A stretch of DNA of 64,000 nt, taken from NCBI GenBank assembly GCA_964490125.1, contig CAZBAJ010000005.1:4631-68630 (forward strand). The letters run 5' to 3'. The DNA is from an uncultured Candidatus Saccharibacteria bacterium. Its GTDB lineage: Bacteria; Patescibacteriota; WWE3; UBA101185; UBA10185. A program made the position numbers and the translations under genes. The notes beneath the pieces are model-generated. The model did not search any database, was not told the DNA's origin, and worked only from the letters and a program-made list of their open reading frames with translations. How positions within the stretch are numbered: the first letter of the stretch is position 1; the number at the start of each line of letters is the position of its first letter. Below are positions 19,840 through 62,783 of the stretch, one piece after another.

Positions 19840-21138
19840 ATGATAGACAATGTCAAAATTACAATTAAAGCGGGCGACGGAGGAGATGGAGCAGTTTCTT
19901 TTCACCGTGAAAAGTTTGTCACTCGTGGTGGACCGGATGGCGGCGATGGCGGTAGGGGAGGCTCCGTAATTTTTGTTGCGGACAACAACACTTCTACTTT
20001 GGACGACTTTAGGTCAAAAAAGGTTTTTAGCGCGCAAAATGGGGAAGCGGGTAAAAAGTTAAAAATGTACGGCAAAAACGCCGAGGATTTGTATATAAAG
20101 GTACCGGTTGGGACTTTGGTGTTCCAGGTTGACGACTTGGGAGACGATTCCGAACTTGCCAAAACAGATAAATTTACTAAAAAGCTAATAGACGGGGCTT
20201 CCTCACAGCGTCAATTAATTGCGGATTTAAACCAACTTGGCGACCGGTTTCTGGTGGCAAAGGGAGGTCGTGGGGGCAAGGGTAATTACAAATTTAAGTC
20301 GTCCACCAACCAAACGCCCACACAATACATTCCCGGCGAGGCAGGGGAGCAAAAAGAAATTATTTTGGAGCTAAAACTTATTGCCGATGTGGGACTTATT
20401 GGGCTTCCCAGCGCAGGTAAAAGCACGCTTATTAACGCACTGGCCCACACTAACGCTAAGGTAGCGTCGTACCACTTTACAACTTTGGAACCTAATTTGG
20501 GGGTTTGGCAGATTGACGCGGGTAGGCGGGTTGTGGTTGCCGATATTCCGGGGTTGATCGAGGGTGCGTCTTTAGGTAAGGGTTTGGGTGACGAGTTTTT
20601 GCGCCACATTGAACGCACTAAAGTTTTGGTGCATTTGGTGGATCCTTTGGCGGTAATGGAAGAGAAATCAATCGAAGCTCGAAATCGTTTGACTGCGGTG
20701 GACTCGCCAAGAGCTAACGAGCTTGAATCTAGTCAGCTAATAAATCCTGCCAAAGTGTTCCAAAACTACCAAGTCGTCCTAAAAGAGCTTAAAGACTACA
20801 AGGGCGGACTTTGGGATGTTAGCCAAAAGCCCCAGGTTGTGGTTATAAATAAAATTGACATTACAGAAGTTAAAGATGCGCTTACAGCTTTGGTTGACTA
20901 TTTTAGGCTCCAGGTAGTTGAGGTGCTACCAATCTCTGCGGCAACGGGGGAGGGTGTAGAGGCGTTGCGCAAAAAAGTGCTGGAAGTTTTGTCGTACACC
21001 AAAGAACCAGAGGTGGAAATTGAACCTCCTGTTAAAAAATACAATCTGTACAATTTGCCGGGTTTAAATCGTCGTCCTGTTTTAACTAAAGAGGTTAAAG
21101 GTTTGGTGGAAGCCCCTAAAAGGCGGGAGATTAGGTAG
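19840..21138 (+). CDS. obg: GTPase Obg/CgtA
   Basis: N-terminal Obg fold (IKAGDGGDGAVSFHREKFVTRGGPDGGDGGRGGSVIF). G domain (GLPSAGKSTL, DIPGLIEGA, NKID). C-terminal extension. Confidence 0.9.
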   Translation: MIDNVKITIKAGDGGDGAVSFHREKFVTRGGPDGGDGGRGGSVIFVADNNTSTLDDFRSKKVFSAQNGEAGKKLKMYGKNAEDLYIKVPVGTLVFQVDDLGDDSELAKTDKFTKKLIDGASSQRQLIADLNQLGDRFLVAKGGRGGKGNYKFKSSTNQTPTQYIPGEAGEQKEIILELKLIADVGLIGLPSAGKSTLINALAHTNAKVASYHFTTLEPNLGVWQIDAGRRVVVADIPGLIEGASLGKGLGDEFLRHIERTKVLVHLVDPLAVMEEKSIEARNRLTAVDSPRANELESSQLINPAKVFQNYQVVLKELKDYKGGLWDVSQKPQVVVINKIDITEVKDALTALVDYFRLQVVEVLPISAATGEGVEALRKKVLEVLSYTKEPEVEIEPPVKKYNLYNLPGLNRRPVLTKEVKGLVEAPKRREIR

Positions 21139-27759: not shown

Positions 27760-28449
27760 TTAATTGGAGATCCACCAGCTAACTTCAGCGTCGGTGGCGG
27801 TTGGGGCATCTAGTTCCAAGTAAAAACCTTCAAAAGGAATTTTTTGGGAGATCCAATATCTGGTAGCCGGTGAAAAGTCAGAGCTAAAAGTTGCGTTAAT
27901 TTTTGAGTCCAGTTTTACTTGGGAGCTTTTTATATACACCTTCTTTTGGTTTTTTAAAATGTAAGTAGTCCCACTGTCCAAAATAAACTTTTTGTCTAAT
28001 TCCAAAGTTCTTTTAATTAGGTCATTTTTGGACTTGCCTATGGGCAAAAAGCCAAAACCCGCAAGAATTACCAGACCAAAAAGAGCCAAAAGCGCAAATT
28101 TAACAGTTTTGGTCGACGGTGTTAAGATCCTTGCCACCTTTATTGTTGAGGCATAGGTTTTTTGATTTTGACTATTTTGATTTATGGTAGAAAGTGACTT
28201 TAGTTTTTGACCGATTTCCTCATTAGAAAGTCCCAAAGCTTTTAATTTTTCTATTTCCAACAGGGTATCCAGCGCGTGTTTTGGATAGTGACCTATAACC
28301 TCGCCATTTATAGTTCTTCTGACCATGTGGGGGAGCAGTCCCAATTTGGTGTAGTAGCGCAACCTATTATAAGGGTCGCCCTTGCCAAACTTAACACCGT
28401 TTTTTACGGCAAGCTCTATTAAAGTGTCCAGCGCTAGTAAGTCGTCCAT
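27760..28449 (-). CDS. hypothetical membrane-anchored protein with N-terminal HTH-like domain
   Basis: The N-terminal 80 aa are helical with a putative HTH (YNRLRYYTKLGLLP). Single TM (ALLALFGLVILAGFGFL). C-terminal extracytoplasmic domain. Confidence 0.4.
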   Translation of the reverse strand: MDDLLALDTLIELAVKNGVKFGKGDPYNRLRYYTKLGLLPHMVRRTINGEVIGHYPKHALDTLLEIEKLKALGLSNEEIGQKLKSLSTINQNSQNQKTYASTIKVARILTPSTKTVKFALLALFGLVILAGFGFLPIGKSKNDLIKRTLELDKKFILDSGTTYILKNQKKVYIKSSQVKLDSKINATFSSDFSPATRYWISQKIPFEGFYLELDAPTATDAEVSWWISN

Positions 28450-31138: not shown

Positions 31139-31166
31139 TTGACATTATTTTCTAAAGAGGTATTAT
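31139..31166 (+). promoter_or_regulatory. promoter TTGACA-N16-TATTAT directing a leaderless ArsR-family mRNA
   Basis: TTGACA at 31139-31144 and TATTAT at 31161-31166. The ATG of the regulator at 31174 lies about 7 nt downstream of the -10. Confidence 0.45.
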
Positions 31167-31173
31167 GTTTGTC

Positions 31174-31476
31174 ATGAAGTACAATGTAAATATTTCCAAA
31201 GCAATGTCCGACAAAAACAGGCTTAAAATCCTGGAGATGCTTTCTGCTGGGGAGCAAAAAGTTGGAGTTGTGTCCGATAAGCTTGGGGTGGAGGAGAACT
31301 TAGCTTCTCATCACCTTAGAGTTCTTTCCGGGCTTGGCTTTTTAAAAAGCGACAAGCGCGGTAGAGAAGTCTTCTACAAGCTTAACGCAGCAAAGATAGT
31401 ATCAATGCTGGTGGACCTCCAAAAGAATGCTACCTTTAAGGACATTCTCAAGCAGGCCGTTGCTGAAGCGAAATAA
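31174..31476 (+). CDS. ArsR/SmtB-family transcriptional regulator
   Basis: wHTH (LSDKNRLKILEMLSAGEQKVGVVSDKLGVEENLASHHLRVLSGLGFL). Confidence 0.7.
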   Translation: MKYNVNISKAMSDKNRLKILEMLSAGEQKVGVVSDKLGVEENLASHHLRVLSGLGFLKSDKRGREVFYKLNAAKIVSMLVDLQKNATFKDILKQAVAEAK

Positions 31477-31529
31477 CTAGCGATTAAGTTATCCTAGGAT
31501 GATTTAACCGACGAAAATCCCGCCGAAAG

Positions 31530-32060
31530 GTGGGATTTTTGGTAAAATGGCGACAAATGGGGAAAATTGTACCGTTAAGTAAAATCCCGGCGATTGTAAA
31601 AAAGTGCCAAAGCGGGGGGGGGCGTGTTGGCTTAATAACAGGCTGTTTTGATGTTTTGCATATTGGGCATATTAAGCTTTTTAAGTGGGCAAAAAAGCGG
31701 GTTGATTTATTAATAGTAGGACTAGATTCGGACGGCTAGATTAAGTTGTCCAAAGGCGCAGGTCGTCCCGTATTTACTCAAAAAGTACGACTTGAAGTTA
31801 TTTCCGAGCTTTCTTCCGTGGATTATGCTTTTGGGATCCGTGAGATTTTGGATTTTTCCAGCCCATCGTCAAGCAGTTACTACGCTGCGCTTTCCAAGAA
31901 AATCGCCCCCGACTATTTGATTACGCATTTGGCTAAGGACAGATTTACCGATGACAAAATCAAAAGGGCTAGGGATTTAGGTATCAAGGCGTTGATCCAT
32001 AGGGATCGGGCATCGACATCATCGACGGAGATTATTGGGAGAGTAAAACGCCTGTGGTGA
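31530..32060 (+). pseudogene. nucleotidyltransferase (RfaE-domain-II / cytidylyltransferase-like) interrupted by an in-frame TAG at 31737-31739
   Basis: The two track ORFs 31530-31739 and 31746-32060 are in the same frame and contiguous. The HxGH motif (GCFDVLHIGHIKLF) lies in the first fragment. The second fragment continues the expected ...GLDSDG*IKLSKGAGRPVF... alignment of HldE-C/RfaE-II. TAG is used as a genuine stop elsewhere in the window, for example at the end of obg. Confidence 0.55.
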
Positions 32061-32064
32061 CAGA

Positions 32065-32292
32065 TCACCCATCTATGTTTACTTTATCCGTTGGAATACT
32101 GGGGGAGTGGATGGCGAAGAATTTGGTAGGCGCGAGAAATTCACCGGAAATAACATTATTCACATCCACATGGTCCGTTTTGCGTCTATCGCCTTCTGGT
32201 AGAAAAGATCCTACAAACCAACCACGCGTTGCTTCTGCATCCACATACTTTCCATGAAAATATTTATTGTTTCCGACTTTGGTTGTGTCCAT
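32065..32292 (-). CDS. small hypothetical protein (75 aa)
   Basis: ORF downstream of leuS and co-oriented with it. ATG preceded by AAAGG. No recognisable motif. May be spurious. Confidence 0.25.
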   Translation of the reverse strand: MDTTKVGNNKYFHGKYVDAEATRGWFVGSFLPEGDRRKTDHVDVNNVISGEFLAPTKFFAIHSPSIPTDKVNIDG

Positions 32293-32311
32293 ATTATTTT
32301 AACCTTTCCAG

Positions 32312-34798
32312 CTAAATACTTATACTCACGATTTTACCAGGCACAAAAACAAATTTCTTTATTTCTCCTTGTAGGTGTTTGGCGATTTTCTCGTCCTTAA
32401 GGATTTTTTCCTTTAGGGTTTCTTCTGTGTCTTTTGCATCTGTCACTATTTGTCCTCTAACTCTACCATTTATCATAACTGGAATGGTCGTGGAGGTAGT
32501 TTCATCCTCCGTTTTGTCAAACTCTGGCCATGATTGCCAGTGTACGCTGTTCTTCTTGTCCCATGTAGAAAATCCGTTAATTTCTTGCCACAATTGCTCT
32601 GCCAAAAACGGCATAAATGGGGCAAGTACTTTTATAAAGCCTTTCCAAACCTCTGTGTCAATAGCGTCAACCTTTTTAAGGGCATTTACAAAAATCATAA
32701 TCTCACTAATTGCGGTGTTCATTTTAAGGTTCTCACACATTTCGGTAATATTTTTTACCATTTTGTTGTACGACTTTTTGATAGATGGATCGTCATGCGG
32801 GCGAACTTTGTCCTTAAAGTCATATATTGTCTTAACCAGTCGCCACATAGCTTTAATAGTATTTTCATTCCACGGATAGGTTTCTTCGTATGGTCCTAAA
32901 AAGGCTATGGCAAGTCTGGTGGCATCCGCTCCATAATTGGCGACAAGGTCAGACGGCATGACCACATTACCGTATCTTTTTGACATTTTTTTACCGTCCG
33001 GTCCAAGAAGTAACCCGCCCGTCATCCGCCATTTGTAAGGTTCTGGGGTTGGGACAAGTCCCTGGTCGTACAAAAACCTATGCCAAAAGCGCGAGTAAAG
33101 CAGGTGTACCGTGGTATGTCCACCGTCGCCAAAATATTTGTCAACCGGCAACCAATATTTTAGTTTTTCATAATCCGCAAAAGCGTTATTATTATGTGGG
33201 TCTATATAACGCAAAAAGTACCAGCTGGAGCCTGCCCATGTAGGCATGGTTTGGGTTTCTCGTTTTGCGGGATTGCCTTGCTTGTCTGTGGTATTAACCC
33301 AGTCCGTAAGTTTTGCCAGGGGAGGGGAGCCGTCTTGACCTGGTTTAAAATCTTTGGACGGCGGTAAAACCAACGGAAGTTTTTTTGCTATCTCCTCCGG
33401 ATTTTCCGTTGACGCTATAGCCTCCACACTGCCGTCCTGTTTGTAGACTAGGGGAATAGGTTCGCCCCAGTACCTTTGGCGGGAAAAAATCCAATCACGC
33501 ATTTTGCAGGCTGTGGACTTAGCGCCTTTACCTTCTTTTTCTAATCTGGCGACGGCTTGGTTATAAAACTCTTCCGATTTTATACCGTCGTAGCTTGCGG
33601 AATTTATCATTACGCCGTTTTCTGTGAATAGTTGGTTGGACGACTTATCGTCGGGTTGTACTGGTCTTATGACTTCGATTATCTCAAGGCCGTATTTTTT
33701 GGCGAAATCCATGTCCCTTTCATCGTGCGCTGGAACACCCATGATTGAGCCAGTTGCGTAATCCATCAAAATGTAGTCAGCCACAAAAACGGGGATCTTC
33801 CGCGTGACTTCATCAAAGGGATGCCTAGCATTAAGACCCTCTAGCCTGATTCCGGATTTTTCTTTTTGGGTCTTTCGGTCCATGTCGGAGCGGTCTTTTG
33901 CTTTGTCAACATATAGATTTATTTCATCCTTATTGTTAGAAAGTTGCGCCAGCCTCTTTACCACCGGATGTTCCGGGGCAATGGCCAAAAAAGTTACTCC
34001 AAACAGCGTATCTGGTCTAGTTGTAAAGACTTTAAGTTGGTCAATCTCTGTACCCGATTCGTCGTAAAGTTCAAAAGCAACTTCTGCGCCGTCGCTCTTA
34101 CCTATCCAGTTTCTTTGCGCTGTTTTTATGTAGTCGGGAAAGTCCGTTTCTTCTAGTCCGTCCAGCAATTTTTGGGCATACAGGGGCATTTTTAGCACCC
34201 ACTGTTTGTAAACTTTTCGCTCGACTCTTTTATTGTCGCGTTCCGCCACTTTATAACCGTCTTCACTATTTATTACTTCTTCTTCTGCTAAAATTCCAAG
34301 GCTTTCTGACCACCATACCGAGGTTTCCTTGAATTCTGCCAAGCCGTTTTCGTACAATTTTAAAAAAATCCACTGCGTCCATTTATAATAATCCGGATCG
34401 CAAGTATTTATTTCCCGATTCCAGTCAAAGCTGTAACCCATGTCCTGAAGGGATTTTTTAAAGCTTTGGGAAAGTTCCGCAATTAGATCCTGTGGAGTTT
34501 TGTTTGCTTTTATGGCAAAACCCTCTGTGGGTAGACCAAAAGAGTCCCAGCCCATGGGGTATAAAACATTGTAACCTCGCATTTTAAGATACTTTGCGTA
34601 CATATCCGGCACGGTGTAGCGCATCATGTGACCCGCATGTAGGTAAGGTCCGGAGGGGTAGGGGAGTTCCGCTAAAATATACTTTTTAGGCTTGGGGGAA
34701 AAATCTACTGCCTCGTAAAGATTATCGGCGTACCATTTTTCTTTCCAAGTCGACTCAATTTTTTTATGGTCGTATAAGGTTTTTTTCTCTTGCGACAT
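32312..34798 (-). CDS. leuS: leucyl-tRNA synthetase
   Basis: Class I motifs HAGH (PYPSGPYLHAGHMMRYT) and KMSKR. CP1 editing domain and anticodon-binding C-terminus typical of LeuS. Confidence 0.95.
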   Translation of the reverse strand: MSQEKKTLYDHKKIESTWKEKWYADNLYEAVDFSPKPKKYILAELPYPSGPYLHAGHMMRYTVPDMYAKYLKMRGYNVLYPMGWDSFGLPTEGFAIKANKTPQDLIAELSQSFKKSLQDMGYSFDWNREINTCDPDYYKWTQWIFLKLYENGLAEFKETSVWWSESLGILAEEEVINSEDGYKVAERDNKRVERKVYKQWVLKMPLYAQKLLDGLEETDFPDYIKTAQRNWIGKSDGAEVAFELYDESGTEIDQLKVFTTRPDTLFGVTFLAIAPEHPVVKRLAQLSNNKDEINLYVDKAKDRSDMDRKTQKEKSGIRLEGLNARHPFDEVTRKIPVFVADYILMDYATGSIMGVPAHDERDMDFAKKYGLEIIEVIRPVQPDDKSSNQLFTENGVMINSASYDGIKSEEFYNQAVARLEKEGKGAKSTACKMRDWIFSRQRYWGEPIPLVYKQDGSVEAIASTENPEEIAKKLPLVLPPSKDFKPGQDGSPPLAKLTDWVNTTDKQGNPAKRETQTMPTWAGSSWYFLRYIDPHNNNAFADYEKLKYWLPVDKYFGDGGHTTVHLLYSRFWHRFLYDQGLVPTPEPYKWRMTGGLLLGPDGKKMSKRYGNVVMPSDLVANYGADATRLAIAFLGPYEETYPWNENTIKAMWRLVKTIYDFKDKVRPHDDPSIKKSYNKMVKNITEMCENLKMNTAISEIMIFVNALKKVDAIDTEVWKGFIKVLAPFMPFLAEQLWQEINGFSTWDKKNSVHWQSWPEFDKTEDETTSTTIPVMINGRVRGQIVTDAKDTEETLKEKILKDEKIAKHLQGEIKKFVFVPGKIVSISI

Positions 34799-37890: not shown

Positions 37891-39807
37891 ATGGATGTTG
37901 CGCTATTAATTAAGGAAAAACTAAAACAAATCGCCCAAAATTTGTATCAGTTGGATATTACCGATGTGGATGTTGAGCATCCGCAGAACCCGTTGTGGGG
38001 GGATTATTCCAGCAATATCGCGTTGATTAACGCTAAGGCCGTAGGTAAACAGCCTGTTGTTATGGCTAAGGAATTGGTGGCGGTTCTTGTTGATGCTTTT
38101 CCCGAGGGTTTTTTTAGTAAAATCTCTGTAGCAGGTCCTGGTTTTATAAATTTTTCCCTTTCACAACAATTTTATCTAAAGAGCATGTTTAAGATTTTAG
38201 CGGAGGCAGAAGACTTTGGGAAAGCTAATGTTGGACAGGGTATACGCGTGGCGCTTGAGCATTCCAATGTCAATCCCAACAAGGCAGCCCATGTAGGTCA
38301 CTTGCGAAACGCGGTGATTGGTCAGTTTATAGAGCGAAGTTATGAGTTTCTTGGTTACGATGTGACGGTTCAGTATTATGCTAACGACCTTGGGGTTCAG
38401 GTTTCTACCTCCCTATTAGGAGTAAAGAAGCTAGGCGACTTGTTTGATGTGACAAAGTATAAAAAGTTTGACCACTACATGTGGGATGTTTACGCTAAGA
38501 TCTCCCAGGCATTGGAAACTGATGAGTCGCTAAAATTAGAACTGGCTAATCTTATGGCTAAGTTAGATGCCAGAGACCCATCTGTAGCTAAAGAACAAGC
38601 AGAGCTGTCCAAGAAAGTGCTAAAAGATAATATGACAACCTTCTCATTGTTGGGGATAGACTACGATTTGGTAGTGTACGAATCAAGCATCAAAGACATG
38701 TTGATGTGGGAAAAAGCATTTGAAAAACTTAAAAACAACAAAAATATATATTTTGCGACGGAGGGTAATTCCAAGGGTTGTTGGCTAGTTAGAATGCCGT
38801 CACAAAATAACAGTGGCGACAAAAAACCTTTAGACATAGAAGAGGACAAGATTATCGTTAGAAGTAACGGTATACCCACCTATACAGGTAAAGACATTGC
38901 TTATCATATGTGGAAGTTTGGGTTACTGGACATGGATTTTAAGTACAATAAAGTATCACAAAACACGCAGAGGAAGTCATTATACGAAACTAGTGATCAA
39001 GGGGATACGCTGAACAAATTTACTAATTGCGACATGGTTATAGATGTTATAGATGTTAGACAAACCTATGCCATTGATGCCGTTAAGAAGTCACTAGCAT
39101 ATCTAGGTTACCAAGAACAATCAGACAAGTTAAAGCACATCAATTACGGACATGTATATCTTTCCGTCAAGACGGCTATTTCTTTAGGTTATGACATACC
39201 CAAGGAATCCGATCAAATAGCTATGAGTGGCAGGAAAGGCGTAGGAATAAAAATTGATGACTTTATTGACATGGTTGATGCTTCTCTAAAAGAAACTCAT
39301 GGGGATTTTCCTAACGCAAAAGATGTCAGAAACTCGGCTATTAAGTTTGACATTTTACGCTACGACACTTTTCAGGATGTTGTTTTTGACATAGAGTCCG
39401 CTTTAAATTTTAAAGGTTTTACCGGTCCTTATATTCAATATACCCACGCCAGAGCAAACTCGTTGTTAGAAAAAGCAGGCTACACAATAAATTCTAGCGA
39501 CTTTGACTATCTACAAAAAAAGCTGGCAGACTTGGCGCTAGGAAACTCTGCTCTTACCGTACTCCAATCTCTGTATAGATTCCCGGAAGTAATTATAGAG
39601 TCAGCTAATAACTACGCGCCAAACGCCCTGTGTCAGTATTTGTACGACTTATGTCAGAAATTTAATTCCTTTTATAACGATTCCCCTATCATCAATGCGG
39701 AAACCCCAGAGTTAAAGGAATTTAGGTTGCTCCTTACCGCGTCAACCAGGCAGATTATAAAAACCGGCTTGTATTTACTTGGGATAACCGCTGTTGATAG
39801 AATGTAG
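37891..39807 (+). CDS. argS: arginyl-tRNA synthetase
   Basis: N-terminal Arg add-on domain. HVGH motif (PNKAAHVGHLRNAVIG). Class I core. C-terminal DALR anticodon-binding domain. Confidence 0.9.
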   Translation: MDVALLIKEKLKQIAQNLYQLDITDVDVEHPQNPLWGDYSSNIALINAKAVGKQPVVMAKELVAVLVDAFPEGFFSKISVAGPGFINFSLSQQFYLKSMFKILAEAEDFGKANVGQGIRVALEHSNVNPNKAAHVGHLRNAVIGQFIERSYEFLGYDVTVQYYANDLGVQVSTSLLGVKKLGDLFDVTKYKKFDHYMWDVYAKISQALETDESLKLELANLMAKLDARDPSVAKEQAELSKKVLKDNMTTFSLLGIDYDLVVYESSIKDMLMWEKAFEKLKNNKNIYFATEGNSKGCWLVRMPSQNNSGDKKPLDIEEDKIIVRSNGIPTYTGKDIAYHMWKFGLLDMDFKYNKVSQNTQRKSLYETSDQGDTLNKFTNCDMVIDVIDVRQTYAIDAVKKSLAYLGYQEQSDKLKHINYGHVYLSVKTAISLGYDIPKESDQIAMSGRKGVGIKIDDFIDMVDASLKETHGDFPNAKDVRNSAIKFDILRYDTFQDVVFDIESALNFKGFTGPYIQYTHARANSLLEKAGYTINSSDFDYLQKKLADLALGNSALTVLQSLYRFPEVIIESANNYAPNALCQYLYDLCQKFNSFYNDSPIINAETPELKEFRLLLTASTRQIIKTGLYLLGITAVDRM

Positions 39808-45354: not shown

Positions 45355-47241
45355 ATGAAGCTTGGATTAATTAACAAAAAGGCTAATACCATTTCCCTCG
45401 GGTCTAATTCCGATTACGACCACAAGAAAGTGAGCCTCAACGAATTTTGGAACATCTCCAAATGGATTTTTACCTATCTTGTTAAGATGAACAAAAGGTT
45501 CACTCTAGGTTACCTCATTACCGCGCTACTGGACACGGTTTGGAGTATTGCTAATGCTTATGTGCTTTCAGGCATCTTGAATATGGTGATCGATTTGGCA
45601 CAACGGGGGGGAACTCGATTGAACGATTTGTATCCGTATTTCGGTTTGTTACTGGGCTTGAATGTGGTGTTTTCTGCCATTAGCTTTGTTAAATGGTATT
45701 ACAGAAGAGGTTTAGCCCTTATTTCTTATTCAGAGGTTTCTAGAAGTTACTATAAGCGACTGGAATACTTAGGGATCCAGACCCTGGAGGGTCCTGAGAT
45801 GAATAACAAGCTTACTCGTGCGCAGGATGGGATTAACCAGGTATCCGATTACTTTGAGCAGACTGTGGAATTTCTCAAGAGTTTCTTTACACTCGTTATC
45901 TCTATTGCCATTGTTTTTAAGGTTGCGCCTCTAGTCATGTTGGTTATGTTTCTTTTATCTATCCCCAGATTTCTTGTTGATAGGCGTTTCAGATCCCTGG
46001 TCTGGTCTTGGGGTTACATAAACACAGAGGAGCGACGAAAGGCGGGATCAAGTTCCGGATCACTTTCCAGCACAATTAGTCTGTTGGAAATTTCAGTAAT
46101 CAAAGCCCAAAGTTTTCTGGATAACAAATTTACCGCATTCTATAACTATTTCAACGCTAGGGCATTACAGATTCGCAAATCATGGTTTACATCGTCGTTC
46201 TTTTTCGAAGTAATTTCAAATTCCGCTTCGTACTTTGGGTACCTTTATCTTTTTGCAAAGTACCTAGGTAAGCTAATTAATGTCGGACAAGTTTTCTTTT
46301 ATATTCGGATGATAGACATGTTTCAACGATCCTTAACTCAAACTTTCGATTGGATGAACAACCTTTTTGAGTATTCCATTCGATTTAGGGAGCTTTATAT
46401 GGTCTTTGTTACGAAACCGGCTTTTGAAGACGGAGCCGTGGAATTTCCTAAACTAGCTAAAGGGCCGGAAATTGAAGTCAAAAACATGTCGTTTAAATAC
46501 CCAAACACTGACAAAATGATTTTTAACAACCTGTCGCTCAAAATTAAAAGTGGTGAAAAAGTTGCCATAGTAGGACATAACGGGGCAGGGAAGACTACTT
46601 TGGTAAAGCTTTTATGTCGAATATATAAACCCACAAGTGGGGAGATTGTCGTAAATGGTCGAAATTTGACAGACTTAAAGATTGATAGTTGGTACCAAAA
46701 CATGGGTGTGTTGTTTCAGGAGTTTAACACTTATCCGCAACTTACTGTAAGGGAGAATATTACCATAGGAAATCCCAACGAACCGATGGATGAGGTGGCT
46801 TTGCACTTGGCAGCTCAGAGTGCCGATGCGTCATCCTTTATTGACGAATTTCCTGCCAAATACGACCAAATCTTAAGTGAAAAATTTAAAGGGGGAATTA
46901 GGCCGTCTACCGGACAATGGCAAAAATTGGCTATCGCGCGCTTTTTCTATCGCAACGCTCCGCTGGTAATTTTTGACGAGCCCACCGCGTCCATTGACGC
47001 CGTGTCGGAATACAACATTTTTAACAAAATTTACGACTTTTTTAAGGAGAAGACAGTAATTATAATATCGCATCGCTTTTCCACCGTCCGCAATGCTGAC
47101 AGAATTATAGTTTTGGACCACGGGGAGATTATTGAAGAAGGCACCCACGACTTTTTAATGAGTAACAACGGTTATTATGCCAAAGCATTTAATTTGCAGG
47201 CAAAAGGCTACGGGGCTAGTGATGACGGGGGTAGGGAGTAA
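45355..47241 (+). CDS. ABC transporter, fused permease/ATP-binding exporter
   Basis: Six N-terminal TM helices. Walker A (GHNGAGKTTLVKLL). Signature (STGQWQKLAIAR). Walker B (VIFDEPT). H-loop. Confidence 0.85.
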   Translation: MKLGLINKKANTISLGSNSDYDHKKVSLNEFWNISKWIFTYLVKMNKRFTLGYLITALLDTVWSIANAYVLSGILNMVIDLAQRGGTRLNDLYPYFGLLLGLNVVFSAISFVKWYYRRGLALISYSEVSRSYYKRLEYLGIQTLEGPEMNNKLTRAQDGINQVSDYFEQTVEFLKSFFTLVISIAIVFKVAPLVMLVMFLLSIPRFLVDRRFRSLVWSWGYINTEERRKAGSSSGSLSSTISLLEISVIKAQSFLDNKFTAFYNYFNARALQIRKSWFTSSFFFEVISNSASYFGYLYLFAKYLGKLINVGQVFFYIRMIDMFQRSLTQTFDWMNNLFEYSIRFRELYMVFVTKPAFEDGAVEFPKLAKGPEIEVKNMSFKYPNTDKMIFNNLSLKIKSGEKVAIVGHNGAGKTTLVKLLCRIYKPTSGEIVVNGRNLTDLKIDSWYQNMGVLFQEFNTYPQLTVRENITIGNPNEPMDEVALHLAAQSADASSFIDEFPAKYDQILSEKFKGGIRPSTGQWQKLAIARFFYRNAPLVIFDEPTASIDAVSEYNIFNKIYDFFKEKTVIIISHRFSTVRNADRIIVLDHGEIIEEGTHDFLMSNNGYYAKAFNLQAKGYGASDDGGRE

Positions 47242-62132: not shown

Positions 62133-62783
62133 TTAAAGCTGTAGCAGGTTGACAAAAAAGCTGACGATGGGGGAGACGATTTTGGAAATACTGCCCGTGG
62201 CTACCATAAAAATTAAGATAAATATGCCGTAGGGGGCAAGTTGTACCCACTGCACGGAGAGTTGCGGTGGTAAAAGACCGTTGACGATTTTAAAGCCATC
62301 TAAAGGCTCTATTGGAAGCAAGTTAAAGATGCCCAAAACGATGTTATACAAAATGACTGGATACAAAAATGTGGTCAGAATAAGAATAGGGGACACCAAG
62401 CCAGAATTTGTATTTGCGCCAAAAATTGACTCAATAATCTTTACTACCATCGTCAGTAAAGTCGCCATTAAAAAATTGCTACCGGGACCGGCAAAGGAAA
62501 TTATGGCAGCGTCCCGTTTTGGATTTTTTAGGTTGTAATAATTTATGGGAACTGCTTTTCCCCAACCAAATCCCGCTATTAAAAGTGTAAGCGTGCCTAA
62601 TGGATCTAGGTGCGCTAAAGGATTTAAGCTTACCCGACCAAGATCTTTAGCTGTGGAGTCGCCCAGTTTGTTAGCCACAAAGGCATGGGAAAACTCATGA
62701 ATAGTAATAGAAAACAGCAAAGCCACGGCAATAACAGCAAAAAGTAGGGGATTTTCAAATAGCGTTCCCAAAAGTCCAGTCAT
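62133..62783 (-). CDS. site-2 protease family (M50) membrane metalloprotease
   Basis: HEFSHAFVANKLGD (HExxH in a TM helix) plus a downstream LDG motif. Confidence 0.75.
   Translation of the reverse strand: MTGLLGTLFENPLLFAVIAVALLFSITIHEFSHAFVANKLGDSTAKDLGRVSLNPLAHLDPLGTLTLLIAGFGWGKAVPINYYNLKNPKRDAAIISFAGPGSNFLMATLLTMVVKIIESIFGANTNSGLVSPILILTTFLYPVILYNIVLGIFNLLPIEPLDGFKIVNGLLPPQLSVQWVQLAPYGIFILIFMVATGSISKIVSPIVSFFVNLLQL

Follow-up and report, generated by a model that had tools for sequence, protein, structure and literature searches.

An in-frame amber codon in an HldC-like nucleotidyltransferase gene of a Patescibacteria genome probably marks a recent pseudogene

Introduction

Does a stop codon in the middle of an otherwise intact gene mark a dead gene, a recoded one, a split one or a mistake in the sequence? 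The question is raised by a stretch of 64,000 nucleotides from an uncultured bacterium of the CPR/Patescibacteria (hereafter, the window), in which two open reading frames (ORFs), 31530..31739 and 31746..32060, are separated by a TAG codon. The original prediction, made from the sequence itself, took them for the two parts of one RfaE-II/cytidylyltransferase-like gene, and offered three explanations for the stop: a very recent pseudogene, a sequencing error, or read-through or suppression.

Results

A 167-codon frame with a single interruption

As predicted, the two ORFs share one frame with the TAG between them. Two ordinary sense codons of that frame, ATT AAG, lie between the ORFs, and the TAG at 31737-31739 (codon 61) is the sole interruption of a 167-codon frame running from ATG 31557 to TGA 32060. 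The predicted start does not stand: GTG 31530 lies inside the terminator hairpin of an upstream arsR-like gene, and the start that matches the orthologues is ATG 31557 (MGKIVPL...). The locus comprises the following features.

31557..32060, forward strand: disrupted coding sequence (167 codons) of a cytidylyltransferase-like, HldC/RfaE-II-like standalone nucleotidyltransferase, identified by a PF01467 match and gapless alignment to the 167-aa orthologues P0001 and P0004
31737..31739, forward strand: amber codon at codon 61, in place of a conserved Ser, identified from orthologue codons and found as the same TAG in L001 and L002
31659..31670, forward strand: nucleotide-binding HxGH (HIGH) motif of the N-terminal fragment, read as H35-I-G-H38, with H35 and H38 invariant across the aligned sequences
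32013..32036, forward strand: STSSTEII motif of the C-terminal fragment, corresponding to the ISTT-like second signature of the family; S155, S156, T157 and E158 are conserved
31746..32060, forward strand: 104-aa C-terminal fragment ORF with a TTG start, public record P0005, without HxGH
31614..31622, forward strand: G9 homopolymer encoding Gly20-22, in frame in the window, conserved and length-variable in the clade
31515..31548, forward strand: terminator hairpin of the arsR-like gene (from folding) and a -10-like TAAAAT at 31543-31548 (read from the sequence)

The hairpin at 31515-31538 was missed by a consensus terminator scan and confirmed by folding (-21 kcal/mol, z -4.6); we read it as the terminator of the arsR-like gene because a T run follows it. 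The TAAAAT box stands 8 nt ahead of ATG 31557. A leaderless mRNA is plausible for the disrupted gene, because -10-like boxes directly precede many starts in the window and Shine-Dalgarno (SD) motifs are few. An SD-like tetramer was found in only 7 of the 34 genes checked in the window, and TATAAT-like boxes lie a few bases ahead of many starts, for example those of 27760..28449, 37891..39807, 62133..62783 and the gene at 31557. This pattern suggests that leaderless or near-leaderless mRNAs are widespread in this organism.

Chance juxtaposition of two unrelated ORFs was ruled out, as orthologues of 167 aa, up to 79-83% identical, can be aligned to the joined product with no gap. In public data (NCBI and Logan sources), the tail of the pseudogene is listed as the 104-aa protein P0005, and the N-terminal fragment has been left uncalled by gene callers.

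The joined product is a PF01467 nucleotidyltransferase

Read across the stop, the translation matches PF01467 with an E-value of 3.4e-14 and 53.6 bits (gathering score 21). The match covers residues 27-160 and profile positions 2-131 of 133, in agreement with the original claim that the conserved match spans the stop and that HxGH lies upstream of it. Besides the profile score, the product has the other marks of the family, namely HxGH, the ISTT-like motif (S155-S156-T157-E158-I159) and the five-stranded fold; what it lacks for a functional PF01467 gene is an uninterrupted frame, given the TAG at codon 61. The role of the C-terminal STSSTEII-type motif we take to be that established for the GCT/CCT/HldC family.

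The earlier label of cytidylyltransferase-like holds, and that of RfaE-II does not extend beyond resemblance. The best NCBIfam match is rfaE_dom_II (TIGR02199), which scores 75.3 bits where the equivalog cutoff is 181.5 and aligns over profile positions 2-83 of 144, so that neither the cutoff nor coverage of the full domain is reached. No paralogue of the gene was found in the window.

The AlphaFold model of P0001, a 79%-identical orthologue of the same length, has a pLDDT of 90.5 and shows a five-stranded Rossmann-like alpha/beta fold. It begins with helix 7-19, strand 24-29, helix 36-46 (after HxGH), strand 51-56 and helix 59-66, and continues with three more strand-helix units. A Foldseek search with this model gave HldC, CCT and PanC as the best PDB matches, the nearest solved fold being HldC of Burkholderia pseudomallei (E 2e-11, TM 0.70-0.78). 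By sequence, the nearest solved structures are ECT, HldC, CCT and TagD.

The stop replaces a conserved serine and divides a single domain

A collection of 5.8 billion proteins yielded 172 relatives, the closest of them 79-83% identical; the nearest named relatives belong to Microgenomates-type lineages such as Shapirobacteria, Amesbacteria and Woesebacteria. The column of the stop is Ser in every close orthologue, and Ser, Thr or Val in distant ones. The orthologue codon at this position, which the original prediction had proposed to compare, is TCG in L026 and L028, TCA in L004 and L029, and TCC in L003; TAG appears in this column in no orthologue among more than 40 loci compared. Because L026 and L028 carry TCG, a single C>A transversion (TCG>TAG) suffices to explain the window's codon.

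In the P0001 model, codon 61 falls just past strand 2, so that the stop cuts off three of the five strands and also parts HxGH in the N-terminal fragment from the SSTEII motif in the C-terminal fragment. From the architecture of the family, neither fragment is expected to be catalytically competent, and loss of function would follow.

A pair of subunits, a 60-aa N-terminal fragment and a 104-aa C-terminal fragment started at TTG 31746 and assembling into an active enzyme, would be an alternative to loss. An in-frame TTG 7 nt past the stop and the reporting of the 104-aa ORF by public gene callers are in keeping with it, against which no orthologue is so organized and the break falls inside a single Rossmann-like domain, right after strand 2. 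A scan of the region upstream of TTG 31746 found no promoter-like site or SD motif; as evidence against expression, the missing SD motif was set aside as weak, given the rarity of SD motifs here (7/34 genes), and this weakens the argument from the start site. Taken with the domain architecture, these observations make a split enzyme hardly credible.

The TAG is reproduced in separate assemblies

The identical TAG is present in L001 (SRR11845628) and L002 (SRR11845627), contigs from separate Logan assemblies that are 100% identical to the window across 1.0-1.3 kb. With the same codon in two SRA runs, each assembled separately, a chance error of base calling or assembly is unlikely, and the sequencing error put forward in the original prediction thus loses most of its appeal. 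A search of JGI metagenome contigs with the exact pattern around the TAG, and NNN at the codon itself, returned zero matches of any allele.

An error that hides an intact gene with a true TCG would need a single base, the TAG being one base away from the orthologous codon, and the site comes after a GGC motif. GGC motifs are a known trigger of sequence-specific miscalls on Illumina instruments. The metagenome-assembled genome and the Logan contigs may also share one project of origin. A substitution error would nevertheless have had to reach consensus separately in the assemblies of both SRA runs, and the adjacent cupin deletion (described below) is independent, real damage at the same locus. 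We consider such an error very unlikely and regard the TAG, at the level of assembly consensus, as a real nonsense allele.

TAG is a normal stop in this organism

Among 53 long ORFs in the window, 16 terminate with TAG, 26 with TAA and 11 with TGA, and the TAGs stand at expected ends. The TAG of argS (37891..39807) falls at the last position of the DALR domain (117/117), leuS is TAG-terminated at 828 aa compared with 827-846 aa in orthologues, and obg (19840..21138), noted as TAG-terminated in the original prediction, indeed ends in TAG, as does an M23 peptidase gene. TAG is, on this sequence evidence, a normal stop in this organism, and the original judgment that a global reassignment is unlikely holds.

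Reassigned or read-through TAGs would be recognized by TAGs at sense positions in several genes, depletion of TAG among terminators and conservation of the stop, none of which was found. In a scan for same-frame ORF pairs one stop apart, this gene was the only one of the window to be divided by an in-frame TAG; the remaining same-frame pairs are independent neighbours, such as argS and a metallophosphoesterase gene. The search for a tRNA-CUA, also proposed with the original prediction, was carried out on the 64-kb window, and none was present among its five tRNAs. Pyrrolysine was considered too, and rejected because orthologues have Ser in this column and TAG commonly terminates genes here.

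Full-length active enzyme could still be made if this TAG were suppressed by a tRNA, decoded by a near-cognate tRNA or recoded locally. Such read-through would account for a gene that is otherwise intact and whose private changes are not elevated; some CPR lineages do have stop-codon reassignment, the 64 kb searched for tRNAs are a minor part of the genome, and low-level near-cognate read-through of UAG may fit as well. It is at odds with the lack of TAG at this position in more than 40 orthologue loci, with the 16 of 53 long ORFs that end in TAG where expected, and with the absence from the window of both a tRNA-CUA and any other in-frame TAG in conserved genes. In addition, a genome-wide screen of genetic codes in 2021 (Shulgina and Eddy) put all known bacterial stop reassignments at UGA (PMC8629427). 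Read-through or suppression at this site, one of the options originally raised, therefore finds no support here and is improbable.

Decay in the neighbourhood and in orthologues

The neighbours of the disrupted gene are arsR-like, cupin, leuS, comM-like and dprA genes, three of which are needed here.

31165..31476, forward strand: ArsR-family HTH gene, conserved upstream neighbour, with synteny in L001, L003, L029 and L057
32065..32292, reverse strand: remnant of a cupin gene, convergent, shortened from 126 to 75 aa by an in-frame 153-bp deletion that takes out the Cupin_2 core
32312..34798, reverse strand: leuS, conserved downstream neighbour, TAG-terminated, of orthologous length

The cupin remnant is 96% identical to both ends of the 126-aa Cupin_2 protein of L026 and lacks its residues 42-92; in the intact L026 protein, the Cupin_2 match spans residues 48-96, and the 75-aa remnant has no Pfam match. 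The 153-bp deletion has ACA microhomology at its junction and is present in the SRR11845627 assembly too. The 75-aa ORF had also been considered as a remnant of the 230-aa or the NUDIX gene of L003, and this was rejected in favour of the deleted cupin gene.

The slot between the nucleotidyltransferase gene and leuS (32060-32312 in the window) varies in content. It holds a NUDIX gene and a 230-aa gene in L003 (5496-6710), a cupin gene in L026 (735-1115) and L054, and a 411-aa gene in L052 (721-1956) and L053, and it is empty in L028 and L029. Judged by these sequences, the slot is locally a hot spot for the gain and loss of genes.

The integrity of orthologues was surveyed in GTDB representative genomes and JGI metagenomes. 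L021 (same sequence as L049) has a mid-gene frameshift, L024 (same sequence as L051; complete Woesebacteria genome CP011214) a one-base deletion, and L025 is reduced to a remnant of 42 residues. The C-terminus is lost in L044 (516-1037), which is identical to L039 up to residue ~140 and continues in an unrelated Lys/Glu-rich tail. The routine fragmentation of orthologues that the original prediction had named as a sign of decay is thus seen in part, in L021, L024, L025 and L044.

Some orthologues also look composite along their length. L050 (1501-1950) joins an L041-like, Patescibacteria-type start to typical RfaE-II sequence and is a chimera or a recombinant. L004 and L029 are near-identical over the first 37 codons past the tract (dS 0.04) and highly diverged over the remaining 106 (dS ~1), and the window protein resembles L003 in its N-terminal part and L026 in its C-terminal part. 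These patterns suggest within-gene recombination and a mosaic gene.

The inactivation is recent relative to known relatives

No second lesion was found in the 167-codon frame. In a comparison with five relatives, positions that are otherwise invariant carry five changes private to the window, within the range of 1-10 for intact orthologues; these are the stop and four changes clustered at residues 160-163 (VEKI>IGRV). Pairwise dN/dS is ~0.1, with dS at least 1 against every available relative, and dating the inactivation from dN/dS was rejected because synonymous sites are saturated. By sequence comparison, the inactivation is recent relative to the divergence from known relatives, the one comparison to which this dating applies.

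A length-variable poly-G tract sets the frame of the leader

Codons 20-22 read GGG GGG GGG (G9, 31614-31622), the only G/C run of at least 8 in the 64-kb window. Related loci amounting to 258 kb contain 13 such runs, 10 of them at this site, so that runs of this length are nearly confined to it over ~320 kb of DNA. Shorter runs elsewhere include C7 at 41928 and G7 at 45605. GGG makes up 19% of Gly codons here, so that three in succession would be expected by chance at ~0.007, and the tract persists in about ten species-level lineages with saturated synonymous sites (dS > 1).

We compared the tract in the window, L003, L004, L026-L030 and L052-L058. It is G7, G8, G9 or interrupted, and its length sets the frame of a 19-codon leader (MGKIVPLSK...) relative to the catalytic domain; homopolymer consensus errors may contribute to these lengths in some low-coverage contigs. 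The leader is in frame in the window, L003, L028 and L030, out of frame by +1 in L004, L026/L027 and L055, and by -1 in L029, L052/L053, L054, L056 and L057, which makes 8 of the 12 lineages with an out-of-frame leader. A G>A change breaks up the tract of L056 and L057. L004 (G9) and L058 (G7), which come from different studies, are 100% identical over the whole coding region save the tract, a length difference between otherwise identical alleles, with its frame shift, such as would be expected of a phase-variable locus. In this sub-lineage, the in-frame length G8 was never seen in eight assemblies, and ATG codons lie ahead of the tract in both other frames.

In the P0001 model, the leader is a confidently predicted helix within the fold. 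In the out-of-frame lineages, its variable sites number 5, 4 and 15 by codon position, and synonymous to nonsynonymous codon differences are 130:113 in its own frame and 16:211 and 8:219 in the other two. By this measure, the leader keeps the substitution pattern of coding DNA, read in its own frame, also in lineages where that frame does not continue into the domain. Either a hypermutable contingency tract or a slippage site would account for this pattern. That the locus is of contingency type, with a selected, fast-mutating tract that acts as an on/off or isoform switch or is rescued by transcriptional or ribosomal slippage, is a tentative proposal that falls somewhat short of probable. On the contingency reading, the TAG may be a second, permanent off-switch for a gene already under fluctuating selection.

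Two WWE3 genomes carry a second poly-G tract ~800 nt upstream of the orthologue (G9 at L012:311-319 and G8 at L039:710-717). It lies in a region of overlapping small ORFs, one of which encodes a putative membrane protein of 83 aa; screens for tRNAs, tmRNA and Rfam families gave no match at this site in L012 or L039. A limited literature search for homopolymer phase variation in CPR bacteria found no report.

Discussion

We conclude that the locus is most probably a recent loss-of-function allele, the pseudogene of a dispensable HldC-like nucleotidyltransferase. The very recent pseudogene that headed the original list of explanations agrees with a single C>A change, the lack of any other lesion, the damaged cupin gene beside it and the disruption of the family elsewhere, although a still-expressed gene would also fit the otherwise intact state. 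In the sequence of events that we propose, a single C>A change would have turned the conserved Ser61 codon TCG into TAG. Translation should then end after 60 residues, because TAG is a normal stop in this genome. The resulting peptide would keep only the N-terminal helix, strand 1, the HxGH helix and strand 2, and would leave the other three strands and the SSTEII motif to the downstream 104-codon ORF, for which no route of expression is apparent. That the gene is accessory would explain why its loss seems to be tolerated, and is indicated by the lost cupin core, the variable DNA on the leuS side and the frameshifted or truncated orthologues of other Patescibacteria.

For the interpretation of CPR/Patescibacteria genomes, this in-frame TAG offers no evidence of amber reassignment or suppression, and the 104-aa P0005 of public databases is probably the tail of a pseudogene. 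With its nonsense mutation, the core deletion next to it and the variable gene content beside leuS, the locus illustrates ongoing loss of accessory genes, probably glycan-related, in reduced genomes. Should read data confirm the length variation of the tract, it would offer a simple and testable example of frame switching driven by a homopolymer, in a lineage of uncultivated episymbionts.

The allele resembles ordinary bacterial pseudogenes made by a single nonsense mutation, in that one point mutation at a conserved sense codon is accompanied by no other lesion, by decay of a neighbour and by sporadic disruption of orthologues. Nothing notable sets it apart, save that its C-terminal fragment is listed as the protein P0005.

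Among characterized enzymes, HldC/RfaE domain II (D-glycero-beta-D-manno-heptose-1-phosphate adenylyltransferase; TIGR02199; PDB 5x9q/5xf2, Burkholderia pseudomallei) is both the best fold match and the best NCBIfam match. The window product shares with it HxGH, a [DN]SD-x-S...KG..RP block and the C-terminal S-T-x-x-I motif. It differs from true RfaE-II in its divergent C-terminal half with an insertion of ~11 residues, and from HldC in the internal stop codon of the window copy. With TagD glycerol-3-phosphate cytidylyltransferase (1coz), ECT (3elb) and CCT (4zcp), it has in common the PF01467 superfamily, HxGH and the fold, whereas the sequence similarity to these enzymes is confined to the N-terminal half (residues ~27-90).

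Contingency loci are known from the poly-G/C genes of Campylobacter, Neisseria and Haemophilus, and poly(A) genes rescued by slippage from insect endosymbionts. Like the contingency loci, the present gene, putatively one of a glycan pathway, carries a G7-G9 tract in the 5' part of its coding region, and tract length is the sole difference between two alleles and shifts the frame. It departs from them in the in-frame length that is unseen in one sub-lineage and in the ATG codons in the other frames, because of which a simple ON/OFF switch is no more than a candidate reading.
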